Made by a program: the position numbers and the translations under genes. A stretch of DNA of 25,778 bases. It comes from a virus (lineage: Duplodnaviria > Heunggongvirae > Uroviricota > Caudoviricetes). The notes beneath the pieces were generated by a model. That model was not told the DNA's origin and made no database searches. It saw nothing but the letters and a program-made list of their open reading frames with translations. The stretch lies in IMG/VR virus record IMGVR_UViG_2718218136_000006; one strand, 5' to 3'. Positions 2,642 through 24,969 of the stretch are shown in pieces; position 1 is the stretch's first letter; the number at the start of each line of letters is the position of its first letter.

Positions 2642-3171
2642 TGCTCTATCCCCCAACAGGCTAATGCGCTCTCCTGATCACGACGAATAACCTGACCGTA
2701 ACAGTTATTTGAACGAAGGCGGCAATCGCGCCCCCTGTCCTTAATCCACCAGCGAATCGCCTCGCAGGCACCTTTACGATCACCTGCATTCAGCCGCTTA
2801 TAAAATGTCGACGGAAAACACTTAGCGGGGCCAATGTTATAGGGACAAAATGACGCGATACCCGCTTTTTGTGGTTCGGTCAGTGTTACTTTAATATTGC
2901 GATCCACCCATGCCAGCGCCTTATCACGCTCAATGGCATTAACCTGATCGCATTTTTCCTTCGTCAGTGTCATGCCCGGAATAACAGGTTTACCATCTAC
3001 TATCGTGGCACCGCGACAGATGGTCCATATGCCGGAACCATCGCGGTATGCCGTAGTGTGGTTACCCTCTTTTTCATCCAGAAACTGGTCAAGTATCTCA
3101 GGAGCAGATGCGCCTGCTCCAATCAGCGCCAGAACGGCCGCTGACAGGCCGTATTTGATTTTTGCGTTCAT
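2638..3171 (-). CDS. SAR endolysin (phage lysozyme, signal-anchor-release type), 177 aa
   Basis: ATG 3169-3171; N-terminal Gly/Ala-rich weakly hydrophobic segment ([17 protein letters not shown]) followed by E-x8-D-x5-T lysozyme catalytic spacing ([16 protein letters not shown]). Confidence 0.85.
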
Positions 3172-3276
3172 GGATATTTATCAGGATTTATCGGTTTCTG
3201 AACCCTGGATATGTTTATCTGCCCCGGCCTGTTGAATCAGGCGGGGAAAAGGTAAATACAATCAAGAGGATTATTT

Positions 3277-3549
3277 ATGGACAATAACACCATTTCTCTA
3301 CAGGAGTTGCTCGACTGCATTTCCAGGCTTCGGGATGATGTAAATGCCCTCACTGTTGCATTTTCATATCTGGCCTTATCAATTCCCAGAGAACAAATGC
3401 AACCAACACTGGCATCGCTCCTGCTTGAATCACGCAACCCCAAATGGTCCCAGGAACAACAAAATTCTTTTAAGTGGCTGGCGACATTACTGGAAGAAAA
3501 ATATGCTGGTAAAATTACCATTTCGGTGGAGTCTTCAGAAAATCAGTAA
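3277..3549 (+). CDS. hypothetical 90-aa protein, opposite strand to the lysis cassette
   Basis: ATG at 3277 preceded by AAGAGGA at about -9; ORF overlaps the 3' end of the YdfR-like gene convergently by 35 bp. No family recognised. Confidence 0.35.
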   Translation: MDNNTISLQELLDCISRLRDDVNALTVAFSYLALSIPREQMQPTLASLLLESRNPKWSQEQQNSFKWLATLLEEKYAGKITISVESSENQ

Positions 3550-3859
3550 TTCTTCCTGGTAGCTTTCCTTTGTAGGTTATCCACACATTCTGCGCCTCTA
3601 AAATTACGGGGCGCTTTTCCGGCGACTGCTCATCCCCTTCACATAACCCGGCAGCAACATCCAGGAAGACCTGTCTGATGCTCCTTCTGGCTGCAGCCTC
3701 ATAAAACTCCAGCGCAGCACCTTCAACACGGTCCAGCGAGATGTCCAGGTCAAAAATTTCACCGTCAAAGCGTTTTTTGTCTTGTAATGCTACAGTTACC
3801 GCAACTTTATTCTCAAAATTGCGGATCCCTTTCACAATCAGTTCATAGTCTTGGGTCAT
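3515..3859 (-). CDS. YdfR-like (DUF1327-type) prophage protein, 114 aa, between holin and endolysin
   Basis: ATG 3857-3859 with strong GAGGAGAG Shine-Dalgarno; N-terminus MTQDYELIVKGIRNFENKV... recalled as the YdfR family found at the same position in other lambdoid prophages. Confidence 0.55.
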   Translation of the reverse strand: MTQDYELIVKGIRNFENKVAVTVALQDKKRFDGEIFDLDISLDRVEGAALEFYEAAARRSIRQVFLDVAAGLCEGDEQSPEKRPVILEAQNVWITYKGKLPGRITDFLKTPPKW

Positions 3860-3863
3860 TATA

Positions 3864-4079
3864 TTACTCTCCTCTCGCAGCCTTTCTTCTGTCTTCTCTG
3901 ATTTTGAAGTACAGATTTGTCAGATAAGTCAAAAAGCCCAGAACCAGACTACCCAGCACACCGATTGCAGCCCACTGTGACGGAGTTACTCTATCGAGCA
4001 ACTGTAAAAACCAGTAGCCAGCACTGCCTGCGGAGGTGCCATAGGCGACACCCGTTGTTAACTTATCCATGGATTTCAT
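3864..4079 (-). CDS. pinholin (phage 21 S-type holin), 71 aa, dual-start MKSM
   Basis: ORF track 3864..4172 trimmed to ATG 4077-4079 (second Met at 4068-4070) behind GAGGTG; sequence ...[17 protein letters not shown]...[19 protein letters not shown] matches recalled S21 pinholin. Confidence 0.85.
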
Positions 4080-4467
4080 AACCCCCACCTCGCAGATGCG
4101 GGCGCTGTGTAATGGAAACAAAAAATGGCCACCAGCGGCCCGTAAAAAACACCCCGTCAAAAGCACCGGCATCCGCAGATGCCCTTTGCGTGGCGTTATT
4201 TGATGCGCGCCAGATGTGGCGCAAAGAAATGAAATAAGCCTTATCGAAAATTAAGGTTAATTTGATGATTTAAACCACTTCTGAAGCTTAGTAGTATGAA
4301 CATGTCCCCAGAAGGGGCCAATACTTATTATTCTTCATGGACTTTGTCCCGCGGTCTTAATCCGACGACCGCGCTACTTTTCACCCTCTCGCAAATTGCT
4401 ATCTAAAGGACGTTGTCCCACGAGTATTCCTGGATGCTCGTGTCTTTTTTTGTCCTGAGAAAGGAAT

Positions 4468-4490
4468 AAAAAAACCGCCAGATATGGCGG
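4468..4490 (-). terminator. candidate intrinsic terminator (minus strand) between tRNAs and holin
   Basis: Stem CCGCCA(4475-4480)/TGGCGG(4485-4490), 4-nt loop, followed on minus strand by a run of 7 T (4468-4474). Confidence 0.35.
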
Positions 4491-4856
4491 TTGGTCAATG
4501 CAAGGGATGAATTTTTTAATTGTTATTAAACCGAGGCGTCGGGTGCCTCCCGAAGTATTCCGTGCTGTATGGATACTGTGGTTTCCCGCTAAACCGACTC
4601 TTTAAACCACCCTCGCACTGAGGAGCACCTCTGTGGTGCGATTTACAACACCAGAATGATGCATCACCGACCCTGCCAGGAAATACAAAATCTCCACCGA
4701 TAATGCACCATTCTGCTGCCGTAAAAAAATCAGCACTGAGGCTACACCCGGCCTCAAATCATAGCCAGAGAACAGAATGCTTTTTCAAAACAACCTGCTC
4801 CCACGTAATAAAAAAATACGCCAGTGCCGTAATACAATAAGGCTTGTTTCAAATGC

Positions 4857-4931
<75 letters not shown>

Positions 4932-5010: not shown

Positions 5011-5123
5011 ATTGGTTCTTCAGGGGAGCGATATCACCGATCAAAGAAGAGTTCCCCCTCAGAACCGTTTTCGATGATACGATTTAATATTCCAATCGCA
5101 ACAACAGTTTGCGTCAAGTTATG

Positions 5124-5204
5124 TAAATTTATTTATATGTTTTTATTTTATGTGAATAATTCACTTTCACTTAAAATATATACAACAACATATAAATAAA
5201 TTTA
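5124..5204. repeat. 17-bp perfect inverted repeat (TAAATTTATTTATATGT at 5124-5140; reverse complement at 5188-5204), 47-bp spacer
   Basis: Directly read; AT-rich intergenic DNA between the Q-proximal terminator and tRNA-Thr. Confidence 0.6.
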
Positions 5205-5249
5205 TTTTGAAGGCGATGATTAAATGTCGTTTCTGATATCACACCACAG

Positions 5250-5278
5250 AAACAACAAAACCCGCTCGATGGCGGGTT
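5250..5278 (-). terminator. intrinsic terminator downstream of the Q-like gene (tR'-like position)
   Basis: Stem AACCCGC(5259-5265)/GCGGGTT(5272-5278), loop TCGATG; on minus strand followed by TTGTTGTTTC. Confidence 0.5.
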
Positions 5279-5363
5279 CTATTAAAGTTTAATTGCGCTT
5301 GATTCGCCTCGCGATACAGCTTTGCGAAGCGTAGCAAAATTAAAGCAGTTTATGCGTAAAAAA

Positions 5364-5906
5364 TCAAGCCGTTTTTTGAGCGAATGATTCTCGCATGGGA
5401 ATGTATAGCGCATACTCAGCAACGGCCAACCAATTAGCAATTCGCTTTTCGCATGTGCTAAAACACCACTCTGGGTGTGCATCATTTAGCAATTCAGCCA
5501 TTTTGCGTTTGGTCATCCCCCGCCCCTCATACCGTTGCCGAAGGACGCTAATCAATCCTGGATGCTCTGCCAGCACCTCACTTATGACCCGATCAATACA
5601 TAACGCCTCTGCATCAGTACAATGTGCCAGCCAGCTCTTTTGCTTACCGTTAATCATATCCCGCAAAAAAGCCTCAAGTTCAGACTTGTTCAGACCTGCT
5701 TTTTTCATCCTCCGGAGCGCCTCGTTAATTGCCGTTTTTGTCAGCTTTTTAGAGGCCAACAACTGGTTGAACATATTCCCCGTCTTACCGCCGCCAATAT
5801 ACGACCAGCGCCCCCACATGCGCAGTTTTCCCTGAATCCAGACACTTTCCAGCGTGGTGAGACGAAGGTGTTCCCCGCTTTTGCCTATATTTGTTGGGTA
5901 AATCAT
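5364..5906 (-). CDS. putative late-gene antiterminator Q-like protein, about 180 aa
   Basis: ORF track 5364..6026 trimmed to ATG 5904-5906, which overlaps the upstream gene stop (ATGA); W-G-x-W motif (MWGRW) near N-terminus as in Q-family proteins; position immediately upstream of terminator, tRNAs and S-R-Rz. Confidence 0.5.
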   Translation of the reverse strand: MIYPTNIGKSGEHLRLTTLESVWIQGKLRMWGRWSYIGGGKTGNMFNQLLASKKLTKTAINEALRRMKKAGLNKSELEAFLRDMINGKQKSWLAHCTDAEALCIDRVISEVLAEHPGLISVLRQRYEGRGMTKRKMAELLNDAHPEWCFSTCEKRIANWLAVAEYALYIPMRESFAQKTA

Positions 5907-7076: not shown

Positions 7077-7963
7077 GATGCCTCCAAGTTTATAAGTACA
7101 AGAGGTTATATCCACATAGAGACAAAAATATTAATCTTAAAAATATTTATTTCACGCCGTATATTTGTTTGTTTTATGCGCAGGCACAATGACTTTTATT
7201 TATTGTTATGCATATAATCAAATAAGTGATTGTTTTTTGCTCTTCAGATTCAGCAGGCAAAATGCATAAGGGCTGAAAGTTCTCGCATATAATACCTAAT
7301 TTACTATCACTATATTCTAAGCACTTACCAGGTGATTAGGAACGGAACCCAGTACCGTGCGAATTTTAATTATGTGCTGGGACCAAACGGTCTGAAATGT
7401 CTTCATTGGTGACGATGATTACTCTTACTTTTTGATTTTAATATTCCGGCAATAATTTTAATAAAAATCTGTTTTAACTCTGCATTTTGCTGATTCTCCG
7501 AAGAAACTATCCATCTCTACGAGGAGATCAAATGTCGTTTCAAATCAGTATGATGAGTATAAAAATCATGCCATAAATAGAAAACTAATTCGTCTGTATA
7601 GCAGTAATATTTCTGAAAATTAGTAGGATACTGTGGTAAAGAAATTCATTTCCAAGTAATTGGTAAACGCATTTGATTTGATTTTTTGTATGGGCTGTAC
7701 TGGCTAAATAACATCCGATACTTGCCAGCACTAGCGATTGCTATTGATGAGAACAATAGTGGCATCCGGCAAAGCATTTTGTAGGGGGGTATCAAGCGGT
7801 GCTAACGCATTGCGGTAAAAATTCTGTCACACTTGGCGAGCAGGCATAGAGATGATCTCATTGAATTGGTTGCAATCACAAAACACTATGCCTGCCTTTT
7901 CTATTCGCCCATTGCTGGGGAGTCCACAGCACTACTGCAGCTTTTTAGTACGATGAACAGCTA

Positions 7964-8087
7964 TTAAGTAATTTCAGAGGTATCTATCACTTTCTCAGGA
8001 GTTGTAGATAACAATTCTTTCATACGCTGATCTTCGGGAGCACGAGAAGACAGGTGTTCTAAAAACTCACGCCATTGACGCTTTGCA
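7964..8087 (-). pseudogene. orphaned 3' end (37 codons plus stop) of the GHKL ATPase gene, cut off by IS10
   Basis: Reading across the 9-bp duplication, the ATPase frame continues without a stop for 37 codons (QWREFLEHLSSRAPEDQRMKELLSTTPEKVIDTSEIT) to TAA at 7964-7966. Confidence 0.7.
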
Positions 8088-9416
8088 CTGAGAGATCCCC
8101 TCATAATTTCCCCAAAGCGTAACCATGTGTGAATAAATTTTGAGCTAGTAGGGTTGCAGCCACGAGTAAGTCTTCCCTTGTTATTGTGTAGCCAGAATGC
8201 CGCAAAACTTCCATGCCTAAGCGAACTGTTGAGAGTACGTTTCGATTTCTGACTGTGTTAGCCTGGAAGTGCTTGTCCCAACCTTGTTTCTGAGCATGAA
8301 CGCCCGCAAGCCAACATGTTAGTTGAAGCATCAGGGCGATTAGCAGCATGATATCAAAACGCTCTGAGCTGCTCGTTCGGCTATGGCGTAGGCCTAGTCC
8401 GTAGGCAGGACTTTTCAAGTCTCGGAAGGTTTCTTCAATCTGCATTCGCTTCGAATAGATATTAACAAGTTGTTTGGGTGTTCGAATTTCAACAGGTAAG
8501 TTAGTTGCTAGAACCCATGGCTCCTTTGCCGACGCTGAGTAGATTTTAGGTGACGGGTGGTGACAATGAGTCCGTGTCGAGCGCTGATTTTTTCGGCCTT
8601 TAGAGCGAGATTTATACAATAGAATTTGGCATGAGATTGGATTGCTTTTAGTCAGCCTCTTATAGCCTAAAGTCTTTGAGTGACTAGATGACATATCATG
8701 TAAGTTGCTGATAGGTTTCCAGTTTTCCGCTCCTAGGTCTGCATATTGTACTTTTCCTCTTACTCGACTTAACCAGTACCAACCCAGCTTCTCAACGGAT
8801 TTATACCATGGCACTTTAAAGCCAGCATCACTGACAATGAGCGGTGTGGTGTTACTCGGTAGAATGCTCGCAAGGTCGGCTAGAAATTGGTCATGAGCTT
8901 TCTTTGAACATTGCTCTGAAAGCGGGAACGCTTTCTCATAAAGAGTAACAGAACGACCGTGTAGTGCGACTGAAGCTCGCAATACCATAAGTCGTTTTTG
9001 CTCACGAATATCAGACCAGTCAACAAGTACAATGGGCATCGTATTGCCCGAACAGATAAAGCTAGCATGCCAACGGTATACAGCGAGTCGCTCTTTGTGG
9101 AGGTGACGATTACCTAACAATCGGTCGATTCGTTTGATGTTATGTTTTGTTCTCGCTTTGGTTGGCAGGTTACGGCCAAGTTCGGTAAGAGTGAGAGTTT
9201 TACAGTCAAGTAATGCGTGGCAAGCCAACGTTAAGCTGTTGAGTCGTTTTAAGTGTAATTCGGGGCAGAATTGGTAAAGAGAGTCGTGTAAAATATCGAG
9301 TTCGCACATCTTGTTGTCTGATTATTGATTTTTCGCGAAACCATTTGATCATATGACAAGATGTGTATCTACCTTAACTTAATGATTTTGATAAAAATCA
9401 TTAGGGGATTCATCAG
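8088..9416 (-). mobile_element. IS10 copy 1 (1329 bp), flanked by 9-bp direct duplication CGCTTTGCA (8079-8087 and 9417-9425)
   Basis: Ends CTGAGAGATCCCCTCATAATTTCCCC (inside end) and ...TCATTAGGGGATTCATCAG (outside end) recalled as IS10 termini; exact 9-bp flanking repeat read from sequence. Confidence 0.95.
8101..9309 (-). CDS. IS10 transposase, 402 aa
   Basis: ORF track; protein MCELDILHDSLYQFCPELHLKRLNSL... recalled as the IS10/Tn10 transposase. Confidence 0.95.
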   Translation of the reverse strand: MCELDILHDSLYQFCPELHLKRLNSLTLACHALLDCKTLTLTELGRNLPTKARTKHNIKRIDRLLGNRHLHKERLAVYRWHASFICSGNTMPIVLVDWSDIREQKRLMVLRASVALHGRSVTLYEKAFPLSEQCSKKAHDQFLADLASILPSNTTPLIVSDAGFKVPWYKSVEKLGWYWLSRVRGKVQYADLGAENWKPISNLHDMSSSHSKTLGYKRLTKSNPISCQILLYKSRSKGRKNQRSTRTHCHHPSPKIYSASAKEPWVLATNLPVEIRTPKQLVNIYSKRMQIEETFRDLKSPAYGLGLRHSRTSSSERFDIMLLIALMLQLTCWLAGVHAQKQGWDKHFQANTVRNRNVLSTVRLGMEVLRHSGYTITREDLLVAATLLAQNLFTHGYALGKL

Positions 9417-11284
9417 CGCTTTGCATCAGACAGAAGGTCATCCCAAGTTAATGTATACATTTCTTGTTCTCTCAATGTTTTCAGTTTCATATTTAACGTT
9501 GCATTTCTCTTTAAAAAATCATCAGCAACTAGATAACCGGAAACTCGCTTGAATGGACTTCCTGTTGCAGAGTCTAAATAAACTCTGAAAGTATTAACAT
9601 ACTCCTCAAAGCGATTGATGTGATCTTTATCTATTTTCAGCCCTGGCCTCATGAATTCAAGTACAAGCAAATGTTCACCACTTGAAAGAACTAAGTCAAC
9701 CCTTCCTTTAAAGCTTGGATCGTGTTCAATGTCTGATTCTTTTGCTGCTTCTCTAGCGATATGCTGGACATTTTTCTCAATAGCATAAGTCTCCCATTTT
9801 GGAGCTATCAGCCAAGGATTCTTCGCAATATAGTCTCGAACAGCATTTTCTAATTCTTTAGTGCGTATTCTAGTCTCAAGACCACTTATAGTATCAAGCT
9901 TAGCTTTAACTGATTCTGCTGTGTGTAAAGCCTGAATTGTATTTGCTTCGATCAATATCTCAAGCAATTTCGTTTCATCCATATCAGGAACGGAAGCAAC
10001 GCTTCTTATAAGCTCTTTTAGACGCCCTCCCTCCCATGCAGTGAGGATAGAGTTGCCTATATGCCTAAATTGCTCTGCACCGATTTGTTGGATTGATGCA
10101 ATTCGTTTCAAAGCCATTATAACCGTTTTTTTCTCTACACCTAGTTTATCTAGCCTACTTCTGAAATCATCAATTTTACTTTCAATCAGTTTGGTTTTTT
10201 CATCTGCCCGCCGATCTTTCCAGATTTTTAATAATTCGCGAACACGTTTCTGTCCCCACTCTTCTAATTTGGCAAGGTGGTGACTACTCCAATTCAATCT
10301 TTGTCGTTCAGTAGAAATCACATCATCATTAAACTCATCCAAATAATCAGCAATTACAGCCCCTGTCATATATTCAGGACCATTTTGACTTGGCAACCCT
10401 CCAGTCAAGTTAAACATAAACGGCCTTTGTGCTAATTTTTTGTGAGCGTAAATCGAGATACCTTGCAACTCATCATCCTTGATTGTTTCTTTTAAGAAAA
10501 ACACTCTCCATTTTATCTCATAACCATCAACGATTTCTTTTCCATACCCCAAACTGTCAATCTCCGTAAGAGAATCAGGTTTTTCATCTACAGTATAATC
10601 TTTTGGAAAACTATATTCTGCAGTGGCAAGAAAATTTTCGACTGGCATGGGGGTATTATTAATACGAACTAAAAATTCATCGCCGCCAGAATTGATCGCA
10701 AACCTTCTCGCCATAGATGTAGCAAAAGAAGACTCATTTAACAATCTATTTATTTTCAATGACTTAAGTGTTACTGTTGTTCCATGATTTTCTTTTTCTA
10801 ATTCTGAAGGGCCTGTGCGGAAGGTCACATCAATAGCCATGCTTTCAGTTTTAACGTAGTCATCTGACGATCTAATCTTATTTATATCCAAAGTAAAACT
10901 AGTTTTTTCACCTGTTTCTTGGCTAGTAGTACAAATTTCTATAATCTCAGCAATACCAAAACCAGCAAACTTTCCGATACCTTTTCTTCCCATTAAGTCT
11001 CGATTGAATAATTTCGACTTCGCTACAGGATTATCTTTCCTTTTATCAAAACCAACCGTAAGAAATTTCTTTTGACATTCTTCAAATGTCATTCCAATAC
11101 CATTGTCTTTTATAACAATAGTTCTATTTTCATGCGTGGGTAGTGTAATATTAACTTCGGTTGCATCCGCGTCCCAAGCATTAGAAACCATTTCAGCTAT
11201 TGCTGCTGTTGGACTTTGATACATTTGAATACCTAAATGATCAATTATCCTACCATGAAAATTTAGAAATAGTTTATTATCCAT
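9413..11284 (-). CDS. MORC/MutL-like GHKL ATPase (HATPase_c-type N-terminus) with large C-terminal region; truncated to 623 aa by IS10, original about 660 aa
   Basis: Bergerat-fold motifs read directly: EMVSNAWDA (N box), IKDNGIGM (G1), GRKGIGKFAGFG (G2). ATG 11282-11284 overlaps MTase stop by 8 nt. Stop codon 9413-9415 lies inside the IS10 end. Confidence 0.75.
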   Translation of the reverse strand: MDNKLFLNFHGRIIDHLGIQMYQSPTAAIAEMVSNAWDADATEVNITLPTHENRTIVIKDNGIGMTFEECQKKFLTVGFDKRKDNPVAKSKLFNRDLMGRKGIGKFAGFGIAEIIEICTTSQETGEKTSFTLDINKIRSSDDYVKTESMAIDVTFRTGPSELEKENHGTTVTLKSLKINRLLNESSFATSMARRFAINSGGDEFLVRINNTPMPVENFLATAEYSFPKDYTVDEKPDSLTEIDSLGYGKEIVDGYEIKWRVFFLKETIKDDELQGISIYAHKKLAQRPFMFNLTGGLPSQNGPEYMTGAVIADYLDEFNDDVISTERQRLNWSSHHLAKLEEWGQKRVRELLKIWKDRRADEKTKLIESKIDDFRSRLDKLGVEKKTVIMALKRIASIQQIGAEQFRHIGNSILTAWEGGRLKELIRSVASVPDMDETKLLEILIEANTIQALHTAESVKAKLDTISGLETRIRTKELENAVRDYIAKNPWLIAPKWETYAIEKNVQHIAREAAKESDIEHDPSFKGRVDLVLSSGEHLLVLEFMRPGLKIDKDHINRFEEYVNTFRVYLDSATGSPFKRVSGYLVADDFLKRNATLNMKLKTLREQEMYTLTWDDLLSDAKR

Positions 11285-12325
11285 AATCCGCCTCGTTTTT
11301 AGTTATATGTTCTTTGATAAGTTCAGCATGATGCTTAATGAATTCAGGGGGCAATGCATTCCCTATCATCAAAGCAGCCTTGTCTTTACCAAATTGAATA
11401 GGAAAATAGTAATCACTCGGAAAAGTTTGTAATAATGCAGCCTCTCGAAGAGTTATTGCTCTATCTTGTTCAGGATGTAAAAAACGACCTTTTGAAGGAT
11501 TAGTACATCCACTCGTAATAGTTGGAGCTACATCATCCCACCTCATACGACCGTAAACATCGCGAAAACCATTTGGATATCGTTTATGACATGGCAGCCA
11601 ATACTCGTAAGGAAGTTGAGAGCGGCTTCCCCCATCCTTAGGAATAAGACTTATAATTTTTTTAACCTTCTCAGTTCTTCTTTCTAATATATTGTGCAGC
11701 GGATCATTGCTATTTTCAGGTCGAGCCAAATGGCCTATTGCATCGCGCACAGTTATTAAATTACTATTTTTTTGAGCACGAGTAAGCTCTCCGTATCGCG
11801 AAGCAAGTAGTACCATGCGCTTACGTCTTTGTGGCACACCAAATTTACTAGCATCTTCAATTAAAACTGAATTATCATCGATATGATAACCCAATTTCTT
11901 AAGCTCCGAAGTAAACATGTTTATTCGTTCGTCAAATGCCAAAGCTGGTACATTTTCAACCATTACAACTTTTGGAAAAAAGACTTTAACAAAATCTAAA
12001 AAATTAAAAATAAGTTCATTTCTCTCATCAAAGACAGCTACTGTTTTATTTTTTGTTCTTAACGAAGAAAATCCTTGACATGGTGGACAACCTGCCAACA
12101 AATCCAGTTCACCTTGCTGAATTTTTAATTGTTTCATTAATTCATCTGGTGATATATTTTTATATCCCCATTTATTAAGTTAACATCCGGATGGTTGATT
12201 CTATAGGTTTCAGATACAATAGCTTCTTTTTCGATTGCTGATATGACATCAAAGCCAGCCATTTTTAGACCAACTGTCAAACCACCAGCGCCACAAAAAA
12301 GATCAATTGCTTTCATTTTATGCAT
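11277..12325 (-). pseudogene. Dcm-family DNA (cytosine-5) methyltransferase, split by a -1 frameshift in an A5 run (T5 on plus strand at 12157-12161)
   Basis: 62-aa ORF carries motif I (DLFCGAGG) and GDIK; 286-aa ORF carries motif IV (PCQGFS), ENV, and C-terminal GNALPP. Adding one A restores a continuous GDIKNISPDEL...ELDLLAGCPPCQ reading. Confidence 0.8.
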
Positions 12326-12361
12326 TCCATTCCATCATGTATACTATGAATCTAATCGAGA

Positions 12362-12390
12362 ATCATATGAAATTGATAGGCTTTTTACAA
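12362..12390 (-). promoter_or_regulatory. candidate sigma70 promoter for the MTase-ATPase operon
   Basis: On minus strand: TTGTAA (12385-12390), 17-bp spacer, TATGAT (12362-12367), about 40 bp upstream of the MTase start. Confidence 0.35.
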
Positions 12391-12718
12391 TCTTTATCAT
12401 CTATTTTTATTGTCTTATGTAATTTTCTTGGTTATTGGTGGAATGTAATCTCATCTGATATCCTATGTCCTAATAGATAGCAATTCTGTATGAGCTTTTA
12501 TTGCCCTCATCAGACGCTTCCTTTATGAAGTTGTTCCGAGCAATGCAGCATCGCATTTATCACTTCTTTTATGTGGCTTATGTGTCACGGCGTTGTTGCC
12601 ATCAAGGCCAGCGAACATTCCGTGCCTGTCAAACGCCGTGCAAAGCTCGTTAAACGCCCACGTCCGAACTTCGGCAAGGAAGGCATTGGCGCGGTCAACT
12701 CCTGGTAGCCAATCCTGC

Positions 12719-23640: not shown

Positions 23641-24969
23641 CTGAGAGATCCCCTCATAATTTCCCCAAAGCGTAACCATGTGTGAATAAATTTTGAGCTA
23701 GTAGGGTTGCAGCCACGAGTAAGTCTTCCCTTGTTATTGTGTAGCCAGAATGCCGCAAAACTTCCATGCCTAAGCGAACTGTTGAGAGTACGTTTCGATT
23801 TCTGACTGTGTTAGCCTGGAAGTGCTTGTCCCAACCTTGTTTCTGAGCATGAACGCCCGCAAGCCAACATGTTAGTTGAAGCATCAGGGCGATTAGCAGC
23901 ATGATATCAAAACGCTCTGAGCTGCTCGTTCGGCTATGGCGTAGGCCTAGTCCGTAGGCAGGACTTTTCAAGTCTCGGAAGGTTTCTTCAATCTGCATTC
24001 GCTTCGAATAGATATTAACAAGTTGTTTGGGTGTTCGAATTTCAACAGGTAAGTTAGTTGCTAGAACCCATGGCTCCTTTGCCGACGCTGAGTAGATTTT
24101 AGGTGACGGGTGGTGACAATGAGTCCGTGTCGAGCGCTGATTTTTTCGGCCTTTAGAGCGAGATTTATACAATAGAATTTGGCATGAGATTGGATTGCTT
24201 TTAGTCAGCCTCTTATAGCCTAAAGTCTTTGAGTGACTAGATGACATATCATGTAAGTTGCTGATAGGTTTCCAGTTTTCCGCTCCTAGGTCTGCATATT
24301 GTACTTTTCCTCTTACTCGACTTAACCAGTACCAACCCAGCTTCTCAACGGATTTATACCATGGCACTTTAAAGCCAGCATCACTGACAATGAGCGGTGT
24401 GGTGTTACTCGGTAGAATGCTCGCAAGGTCGGCTAGAAATTGGTCATGAGCTTTCTTTGAACATTGCTCTGAAAGCGGGAACGCTTTCTCATAAAGAGTA
24501 ACAGAACGACCGTGTAGTGCGACTGAAGCTCGCAATACCATAAGTCGTTTTTGCTCACGAATATCAGACCAGTCAACAAGTACAATGGGCATCGTATTGC
24601 CCGAACAGATAAAGCTAGCATGCCAACGGTATACAGCGAGTCGCTCTTTGTGGAGGTGACGATTACCTAACAATCGGTCGATTCGTTTGATGTTATGTTT
24701 TGTTCTCGCTTTGGTTGGCAGGTTACGGCCAAGTTCGGTAAGAGTGAGAGTTTTACAGTCAAGTAATGCGTGGCAAGCCAACGTTAAGCTGTTGAGTCGT
24801 TTTAAGTGTAATTCGGGGCAGAATTGGTAAAGAGAGTCGTGTAAAATATCGAGTTCGCACATCTTGTTGTCTGATTATTGATTTTTCGCGAAACCATTTG
24901 ATCATATGACAAGATGTGTATCTACCTTAACTTAATGATTTTGATAAAAATCATTAGGGGATTCATCAG
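23641..24969 (-). mobile_element. IS10 copy 2 (1329 bp), flanked by 9-bp direct duplication CGCTTTACC (23632-23640 and 24970-24978)
   Basis: Same termini as copy 1; 9-bp flanking repeat read from sequence; same orientation as copy 1. Confidence 0.95.
23654..24862 (-). CDS. IS10 transposase, 402 aa
   Basis: ORF track; protein identical to the copy-1 transposase. Confidence 0.95.
   Translation of the reverse strand: MCELDILHDSLYQFCPELHLKRLNSLTLACHALLDCKTLTLTELGRNLPTKARTKHNIKRIDRLLGNRHLHKERLAVYRWHASFICSGNTMPIVLVDWSDIREQKRLMVLRASVALHGRSVTLYEKAFPLSEQCSKKAHDQFLADLASILPSNTTPLIVSDAGFKVPWYKSVEKLGWYWLSRVRGKVQYADLGAENWKPISNLHDMSSSHSKTLGYKRLTKSNPISCQILLYKSRSKGRKNQRSTRTHCHHPSPKIYSASAKEPWVLATNLPVEIRTPKQLVNIYSKRMQIEETFRDLKSPAYGLGLRHSRTSSSERFDIMLLIALMLQLTCWLAGVHAQKQGWDKHFQANTVRNRNVLSTVRLGMEVLRHSGYTITREDLLVAATLLAQNLFTHGYALGKL

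Follow-up and report, generated by a model that had tools for sequence, protein, structure and literature searches.

What is the function of a two-gene, AT-rich prophage locus in which a cytosine methyltransferase gene is followed by the gene of a MORC/MutL-like ATPase? We address this question for IMG/VR record IMGVR_UViG_2718218136_000006 (Caudoviricetes), a DNA stretch of 25,778 nucleotides, hereafter the window, in which both genes lie on the minus strand: a Dcm-family 5-methylcytosine (m5C) methyltransferase, then a GHKL ATPase-nuclease. The pair is very probably a prophage-borne restriction-modification (R-M) operon of the HgiDII/BbrUII (paraMORC3) type, which E. coli O177:H21 carries in inactivated form. 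The chromosome of that strain (NZ_CP016546.1) is 100% identical over the 2978-base locus. Among 5,426 complete E. coli genomes, 18 others carry the locus too, with 99.6–100% identity and a chromosomal position every time. The parts of the two genes are as follows:

12137–12316, minus strand: methylase 5' fragment with motif I (FCGAGG); PF00145, E = 2.4e-11, profile positions 1–52
12157–12161, minus strand: methylase frameshift site, A5 here and A6 in the intact gene; single-base gap against CH4797
11277–12137, minus strand: methylase 3' part with motifs IV (PCQ), VI (ENV), VIII (QRR) and X (GNALPP); PF00145, E = 2.8e-39, profile positions 57–323 of 324
11277–11284, minus strand: overlap of the methylase stop and the restriction-gene start, 8 nt, ATGGATAA
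10745–11284, minus strand: GHKL (Bergerat) ATP-binding domain, residues 1–180
10295–10744, minus strand: S5-like transducer (middle) domain, residues ~181–330
9860–10294, minus strand: long helical linker, residues ~331–475; helices predicted at 335–372, 382–396, 403–418 and 437–474, pLDDT 61–92
9417–9859, minus strand: PD-(D/E)xK nuclease domain, residues ~476–623, with E479, R483, E503, R528, D530, E543, M545, R546, H555, R558 and Y562

The restriction gene starts at 11284, and its intact product comprises 660 residues. Residues 13–634 of this protein align with positions 9–647 of the 659-position NCBIfam model NF050001, "BbrUII/HgiDII family restriction enzyme", at E = 2.5e-89 and 300.6 bits, below the 550-bit equivalog cutoff of the model; the truncated fragment encoded in the window gives E = 1.7e-86. 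PADLOC REase_II models matched at 1e-52 and 4.5e-33, and in PHROGs the family corresponds to phrog_6203, listed as of unknown function. A megablast search of the locus against phage genomes returned no match. A tblastn search of phage genomes recovered two P2-like phages: Yersinia phage P37, whose protein is 67% identical and preceded by a Dcm gene, and E. coli phage PhiR44_1, in which a "ParaMORC3" is annotated beside a "Dcm protein". At 751 bits on NF050001, the protein of PhiR44_1 is a true family member, and it aligns with the window protein from one end to the other (E = 3e-47, 26% identity), the nuclease D and E being in register. On this evidence, we read the window protein as a divergent relative of the named restriction-enzyme family but not as a BbrUII/HgiDII equivalog, since it fails both the equivalog cutoff and the ExK motif described below.

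The N-terminal part was called a MORC/MutL-like GHKL ATPase by a sequence-only reading that preceded this work, and the call held. The Bergerat motifs EMVSNAWDAD, DNGIGM and GRKGIGKFAGFG are present, Pfam HATPase_c_3 matches at E = 9.8e-24, and residues E31, N35, D60–G64, G99–G104 and K283 are invariant among aligned relatives. An AlphaFold2 model was built on the 91%-identical Klebsiella representative P0001 with a 57-sequence alignment including the open reading frame (ORF) of the window (mean pLDDT 81). It comprises a GHKL domain (~1–180), a second alpha/beta domain (~181–330), long helices (335–475) and a C-terminal alpha/beta domain (~476–615). The structures nearest to the N-terminal module in a fold search were eukaryotic MORC3, SMCHD1 and MORC2, and the combination of a GHKL domain bearing the ATP-binding motifs with an S5 domain is that of paraMORC3. 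A PDB sequence search with the full protein yielded GHKL domains only (MutL at 1e-5, then Hsp90/TRAP1), Pfam recognized no family in the middle region (residues 187–465), and a BFVD viral fold search, giving only generic GHKL proteins (Hsp90, RIIA), was uninformative on function.

Housekeeping members of the GHKL superfamily were considered and rejected. The model of canonical MutL (TIGR00585, cutoff 180 bits) gives 38 bits and covers residues 23–73 only, and a PD-(D/E)xK domain stands at the C-terminus instead. Hsp90/HtpG or a histidine kinase fares no better (PRK14083, 46 bits against 455; HtpG, 34.5 against 371), and here, too, the C-terminus is a nuclease. What the MutL, Hsp90 and HtpG models recognize in the protein is confined to the ATP-binding core. 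The profile search suggested in the earlier reading thus gave no placement among Hsp90, histidine kinases or MutL, all lying far below their cutoffs.

A separate model covers the last 158 residues of the window ORF (pLDDT 83.5), and fold comparison matched it to PD-(D/E)xK nucleases. The highest scores belong to NucS (9.2, 21% identity) and AF1548 (9.1), followed by FokI (8.7), BspD6I (8.4), Hna (8.0) and LlaBIII (7.8), then by the Shedu proteins of E. coli (SduA, 7.6) and B. cereus (7.4), and by Kpn2I (7.4), EcoT38I (7.0) and NucC (6.9). A tentative PD-(D/E)xK assignment had been made from the pattern GRVDLV...LLVLEF alone; the fold now supports it, with D530 and E543 as the acidic residues of motifs II and III. 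A PDB search with the C-terminal profile found nothing credible, its sole match (Csn2, 3toc, E = 0.28) being taken as chance.

The first gene was identified earlier as a Dcm-family m5C methyltransferase, and both its motifs and the Pfam DNA_methylase matches agree. Its translations contain FCGAGG, PPCQGFS, MVENVP, PQRRKR and IGNALPP. In the window, the gene is split into ORFs of 62 aa (12325–12137) and 286 aa (12137–11277); the RefSeq start, MKAIDL, lies at 12316, with another in-frame ATG upstream at 12325. In the 18 other genomes, the intact methylase is a single ORF of 346 aa with motifs I, IV, VI, VIII and X, and it scores 155 bits on TIGR00675 (dcm) against a cutoff of 100.65.

Linkage of the two genes extends well beyond E. 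coli. Of 8,000 candidates scored in a word-indexed search, 1,787 proteins reached E ≤ 1e-5, and the top 120 of these are all ~650–700 aa long and at least 48% identical. A profile search run exhaustively over 1.84 billion cluster representatives gave 987 clusters at E ≤ 1e-30. Gene neighborhoods were compared at nine loci, namely seven homologues spread over 48–91% identity together with the E. coli locus and phage P37. A PF00145 methylase gene stands directly upstream on the same strand in all nine, the loci being drawn from E. coli, Klebsiella, Yersinia phage P37, Paraburkholderia, Modicisalibacter, Wenzhouxiangella and metagenomes. The genes overlap by 8 nt in four loci and by 1 nt in one, with gaps of 4–27 nt in the rest; the 8-nt overlap of the window, which the sequence-only reading had correctly placed (11284–11277), recurs in L010 (Klebsiella), L006 (Paraburkholderia) and L007 (a metagenome). 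In close relatives, the identities of methylase and restriction enzyme to the E. coli pair drop together (87/91, 76/67, 63/59 and 57/57%). In Klebsiella, the pair directly follows the lambda-P-like replication genes of a lambdoid prophage, and the P2 accessory hotspot, bounded by gpA and the portal gene, is used in E. coli and Yersinia. Other surroundings are integrase-flanked islands, and one locus lies beside an MmeI-like system. A linkage of homologues to methylases and mobile elements, on which the earlier proposal depended, was found consistently. The pair has the components of a Type II R-M system: a methyltransferase with full motifs (in the intact copy), a linked nuclease-domain gene and a conserved linkage between them.

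A gene for Vsr, the T:G mismatch endonuclease found with m5C methylases, adjoins the pair in Paraburkholderia and Modicisalibacter (L006 and L011). Distant relatives with the canonical nuclease lysine also have Dcm or Vsr nearby, in looser arrangements. In one distant relative (L015), an HhH-GPD DNA glycosylase gene (5106–5732) lies between the GHKL-nuclease and Dcm genes, another base-repair companion like Vsr. A metagenome contig (L014) encodes two paralogous ~635-aa GHKL (HATPase_c_3) proteins close together (1–1755 and 3001–4920), with a Vsr gene after the second.

The element hosting the E. coli pair is a Rac-like prophage with recE, recT, kilR, sieB, ydaT, ydaV and trkG that adjoins ompN, as annotated by RefSeq in NZ_CP016546.1 and CH4797. 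The pair occupies a slot between replication genes (ydaV, DUF1627, DUF977) on one side and a late-regulation block (DUF1367/DUF1364/DUF1133) on the other, which agrees with an earlier suggestion that it sits where lambdoid phages carry accessory genes. Its AT-richness, noted at the same time, is equally clear: the GC content is 0.31–0.39 across 9500–12500 compared with ~0.50 from 12501 on.

Could the ATPase-nuclease act alone? The best-surviving alternative to an R-M operon is a stand-alone nuclease of the Shedu type (type I-D, VcSduA-like) that senses infection via its ATPase and is blind to methylation, the Dcm gene being an independent orphan or anti-restriction methylase. VcSduA shares the layout of GHKL and a DUF4263-like nuclease and acts as a single gene (PMC12137116), GHKL (HATPase_c_3) N-terminal domains are listed in a survey of Shedu proteins (bioRxiv 2023.08.10.552793), some paraMORC3 genes stand alone according to Iyer et al. 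(PMC2292703), and the C-terminal model does resemble solved Shedu nuclease domains. The SduA_C profile (PF14082) also matches weakly: the window protein scores 13.2 bits (E = 0.1), and three of ten relatives with the canonical lysine score 17.8–21.9 bits (E of 2e-4 to 4e-3). All of these values, however, lie under the 27-bit gathering score, and among curated families the best match over the full length is to one of restriction enzymes. The methylase gene, moreover, is directly upstream throughout the loci compared, often with overlapping codons, across Enterobacterales, Burkholderiales, Oceanospirillales and metagenomes; the two proteins diverge in parallel among close relatives; and Vsr, a companion of m5C methylases, is a recurrent neighbor. 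Taken together, these observations make a methylation-blind Shedu nuclease unlikely.

The R-M operon of the window is nevertheless not intact, as its restriction gene is interrupted by an insertion sequence:

9417–9425, minus strand: target-site duplication, copy 1, TGCAAAGCG
8088–9416, minus strand: IS10 (ISVsa5), 1329 bp, inside the restriction gene, with ends CTGATGAATCCCCTAATG and CTGAGAGATCCCCTCATAATTTCCCC and a 9-bp target duplication
8101–9309, minus strand: IS10 transposase ORF
9302–9371, plus strand: RNA-OUT of IS10, Rfam 98.8 bits
8079–8087, minus strand: target-site duplication, copy 2, TGCAAAGCG
7964–8078, minus strand: 3' remnant of the restriction gene beyond IS10, 37 codons (QWREFLEHLSSRAPEDQRMKELLSTTPEKVIDTSEIT) and a stop, matching the end of the intact 660-aa protein exactly

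RefSeq labels the inserted element "IS4-like element ISVsa5 family transposase". The disruption, with its target duplication, is certain; the insertion is absent from the 18 other E. coli copies, and the copy in the window is dead. The gene had been reported to end at 9413, and there is a stop codon at this position, but it is supplied by IS10: the gene resumes at 8078–7964, so that the full feature extends ~1.45 kb past 9413. Through the insertion, the restriction enzyme loses its conserved 37-residue tail, in which W625, F628, R635, P637, D639 and R641 are nearly invariant.

The methylase was earlier taken to be damaged as well, and a frameshift is indeed present in the sequence. The A-run at 12157–12161 is A6 in the 18 other genomes, and this is the sole difference from the intact gene. 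Over ~21 kb shared with the sister strain E. coli CH4797, the window shows no substitutions and three one-base homopolymer deletions, all in the record of the window: T6 to T5 at ~16556 (a helix-turn-helix gene), A6 to A5 at 12157–12161 (the methylase) and C5 to C4 at ~4317. Because homopolymer deletions are the only differences in ~21 kb, the frameshift is probably an assembly error in NZ_CP016546.1, not biology. Two of these deletions produce a "frameshifted" HTH-repressor-like gene and the split methylase. The clear decay is thus confined to the restriction gene (IS10 and its target duplication), which we count in favor of an R-M operon. If only this gene is broken, the locus would follow the usual order of R-M decay, with the nuclease lost first and the methylase left as an orphan. 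A related P2-prophage system in one E. coli genome (L003) may be another case of decay, there with a shortened methylase: the gene at 3969–4532 encodes 187 aa compared with 342 aa in L004 and L005, and an extra Transposase_mut (IS256-family) gene at 7383–8591 directly follows the restriction gene.

How would an intact operon work? The methyltransferase would mark host DNA at a specific sequence, and the second gene would encode a single-chain restriction enzyme made of a GHKL+S5 ATPase module, a helical linker and a NucS/Shedu-like PD-(D/E)xK nuclease. ATP binding may dimerize the N-terminal modules into a DNA clamp, as in MutL, MORC, Hsp90 and GyrB; the clamp would bring two nuclease domains together and lead to double-strand cleavage of DNA lacking the partner's methylation. 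In this way, the lysogen would restrict incoming phage and plasmid DNA. The domain identities, folds, restriction-family homology, methylase linkage, mobile context and IS10 disruption were observed here, whereas the ATP-gated clamp action, the methylation sensitivity and the sequence specificity of the restriction protein are inferred.

A MutL-like N-terminus joined to a NucS-like domain would also suit a repair factor, i.e., MutL and Vsr functions in one chain, correcting T:G mismatches that arise from deaminated m5C. Methylase linkage is equally expected for such a protein, E. coli MutL assists Vsr, and a recruitment of paraMORC proteins to repair has been raised by Iyer et al. Yet separate Vsr genes lie beside the pair in L006, L011 and L014, where a second T:G repair enzyme would be redundant, the N-terminal mismatch-binding domain of NucS is absent, and the named members of the family are restriction enzymes. 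The locus is also found in prophage defense hotspots, and selective loss of a repair gene would not be expected. We therefore regard a repair role as very improbable.

The nuclease site itself raises a further question about the R-M operon, namely whether the protein cuts DNA at all. LEFMRP of the window protein aligns with IEMKRP of PhiR44_1, so that the lysine of ExK is replaced by methionine (E543-F-M545). We tabulated the active-site positions in the C-terminal domains of cluster representatives from the profile search, of which 122 could be aligned with the domain profile. D530 is kept by 113 of 115 sequences and E543 by 116 of 117, and E503 and Y562 are invariant or nearly so. At position 545, the 117 representatives with a residue carry K in 71 cases, M in 41, and V or T in a few. 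Methionine here defines a subclade comprising all representatives above ~520 bits, and three further positions change with it. Position 483 is R in the subclade and Q or H elsewhere in the family, true BbrUII/HgiDII members included; position 545 is M as against K; position 555 is H as against E or D; and position 558 is R as against Q. Among representatives P0121–P0269, the covariation of the four positions is clean, with one intermediate, P0159, that reads Q-M-H-R.

Position 558 opens an xxxY motif 13 residues past the ExK position, which corresponds to QxxxY of NucS/RecB-type nucleases, and position 483 lies in the first helix, one turn past the conserved E479. We predict R483, H555 and R558 to be at the active site, where the positive charge would have moved from the strand to the flanking helices; this placement derives from secondary-structure position and the ExK-(~11)-QxxxY pattern of NucS/RecB-type enzymes, not from measured distances. 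PD-(D/E)xK enzymes are known to accommodate shifts of this kind, and those without the canonical lysine, such as BamHI and BglII, are active.

A dead nuclease is the other way to read the missing lysine. The protein would then be a MORC-like ATP-dependent clamp that silences foreign, unmethylated DNA by binding or compacting it instead of cutting it, a role fitting both the replacement of the catalytic lysine by M545 (or V/T) in the whole subclade and the nearest N-terminal structures, since MORC3, SMCHD1 and MORC2 compact and silence DNA. Against this, D530, E543, E503 and Y562 are kept throughout or nearly so, the loss of the lysine co-varies with the gain of R483, H555 and R558 in helices predicted at the active site, which looks like rebuilding, and the activity of BamHI and BglII speaks the same way. 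An insertion sequence in the gene is, in addition, what would be expected for a toxic nuclease. A purely silencing role thus appears highly doubtful. A methylation-dependent (Type IV) enzyme was rejected outright, as it would be suicidal beside its own methylase.

We also considered a bolder form of the R-M operon, in which the Met-for-Lys subclade would be a mechanistically distinct ATP-gated restriction enzyme: a MORC-type clamp that senses missing m5C and carries a rebuilt nuclease site (K545 lost; R483, H555 and R558 gained). We hold this to be rather improbable, although less so than the alternatives discussed above. If it is true, the intact E. coli copies would offer a tractable prokaryotic model for MORC ATPase clamping coupled to DNA-methylation status.

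Several points weigh against the assignment as an R-M operon. The restriction relatives with ~51% identity (L007, L012 and L013) carry a different Dcm subfamily (31% identity and 412–432 aa compared with L002), and strict co-specificity would not predict such an exchange of the methylase partner beside a fairly conserved restriction protein. With methionine in place of the ExK lysine throughout the subclade, nuclease activity is not guaranteed. The score on NF050001 remains under the equivalog cutoff, and for this reason the RefSeq name is only "ATP-binding protein". To our knowledge, ATP dependence of HgiDII-type enzymes is undocumented, and our literature search found no experiment on any member of the subclade. 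The same search returned no structure or biochemical account of the ATPase role in GHKL restriction enzymes, and experimental support for a coupling of ATPase and nuclease comes only from the relative VcSduA. As a separate matter, the methylase exchange in L007, L012 and L013 raises the question of where sequence specificity resides.

The sequence-only reading knew of no characterized system with this two-gene layout. This part of it was not sustained: the end-to-end match to NF050001, R.HgiDII, paraMORC3, VcSduA and the annotation of PhiR44_1 all contradict it. Our literature search found no paper on PhiR44_1 nor on a combination of Shedu, GHKL and a methyltransferase. HgiDII, catalogued since 1991, and BbrUII are the named prototypes, and BbrUII is a SalI isoschizomer. 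R.HgiDII was described as a Type II (P, orthodox) enzyme with an N-terminal GHKL domain and a C-terminal domain of unassigned kind, along with four further GHKL-bearing subfamilies of restriction enzymes (Orlowski and Bujnicki 2008, PMC2441816), and M.HgiDII is a characterized m5C methylase for GTCGAC (PMC5867850). For M.BbrUII, the papers conflict, describing either an N6-adenine methylase (PMC5829577) or an m5C methylase homologous to M.HgiDII (PMC5867850).

The pair studied here shares with HgiDII/BbrUII the two genes, an m5C methyltransferase and a ~650-aa restriction protein that begins with a GHKL domain and ends in a nuclease, as well as whole-length homology in which the nuclease D and E, the following RP and xxxY are kept. 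It differs in its score (300 bits as against the 550-bit cutoff), which places it in a separate subfamily, presumably with another specificity; in ExM instead of ExK, with R, H and R replacing Q/H483, E/D555 and Q558; and in gene order, which in the subclade is fixed as methylase then restriction gene, often with overlapping codons, whereas the genes of PhiR44_1 are convergent.

ParaMORC3 was defined as a GHKL+S5 protein with an RE-fold nuclease in R-M contexts (Iyer, Abhiman and Aravind 2008, PMC2292703). The window protein has the same order of GHKL+S5 and a conserved C-terminal RE-fold endonuclease, the same proteobacterial spread, and the same association with DNA methylases, Vsr and mobile islands. 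Of the defining E-D-ExK motif, the subclade retains the fold and the E, D and E, but has M for K. Many nuclease-bearing paraMORC3 genes stand alone (PMC2292703), whereas the subclade is methylase-linked in all sampled loci.

With VcSduA and Shedu type I-D, where GHKL-nuclease fusions have been placed and one has been tested (Gu et al., Adams et al.; bioRxiv 2023.08.10.552793, PMC12137116), the window protein shares the three-part architecture and the NucS/Shedu kind of nuclease fold. Phage defense by VcSduA (GHKL+DUF4263), reported in 2025, was abolished by E27A in the ATPase or K557A in the nuclease (PMC12137116). VcSduA is, however, a single gene without a methylase, unlike the sampled subclade loci with their preceding Dcm gene, and its DUF4263 is recognizable and has ExK, whereas the window protein reaches 13 bits on SduA_C and lacks the lysine. 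Eukaryotic MORC2, MORC3 and SMCHD1 have a link to cytosine methylation in common with the pair, but at 14–17% identity the window protein differs in carrying a nuclease and no CW, coiled-coil or chromatin reader domains.

The two-gene layout is therefore already known, and a modest novelty may possibly lie in a large, methylase-coupled Proteobacterial subclade with a rebuilt nuclease site. Its members are publicly annotated only as "ATP-binding protein" (RefSeq) or "unknown function" (PHROGs), for which "probable restriction enzymes" would be a better label. Eukaryotic MORC proteins have been proposed to descend from bacterial GHKL-headed restriction enzymes, which have been catalogued since 2008. 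The broken copy in the window adds little by itself; it points to intact operons, 99.6–100% identical, in 18 complete E. coli genomes, which would be convenient for experiments on ATP-gated restriction.

Transcription of the operon was the subject of a further earlier claim, that the genes are translationally coupled in a single prophage operon behind one candidate promoter. The operon and its coupling agree with the overlap described above, but the promoter does not stand up well, being a weak consensus match only:

12362–12390, minus strand: candidate sigma-70 promoter, weak, TTGTAA-17-TATGAT, 9/12 consensus matches

A consensus scan found 5 promoter-like sites in the region as against 12.8 in shuffled sequence, i.e., fewer than in the shuffles.

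On the 3' side of the restriction gene, a stretch of ~850 bp (7116–7963) is also AT-rich (GC 0.33–0.39) and conserved in CH4797. It contains no ORF of more than 50 aa and no Rfam match, and it appears to be part of the imported module. A second, identical IS10/ISVsa5 transposase copy lies at 23654–24862, ~14 kb away from that at 8101–9309 and in the same orientation. The prophage integrase is truncated by this second copy and annotated as "Arm DNA-binding domain-containing protein, incomplete". As direct repeats, the two IS10 copies flank all of the prophage early region between the integrase end and the restriction gene, and could either delete this region or mobilize it as a composite element.

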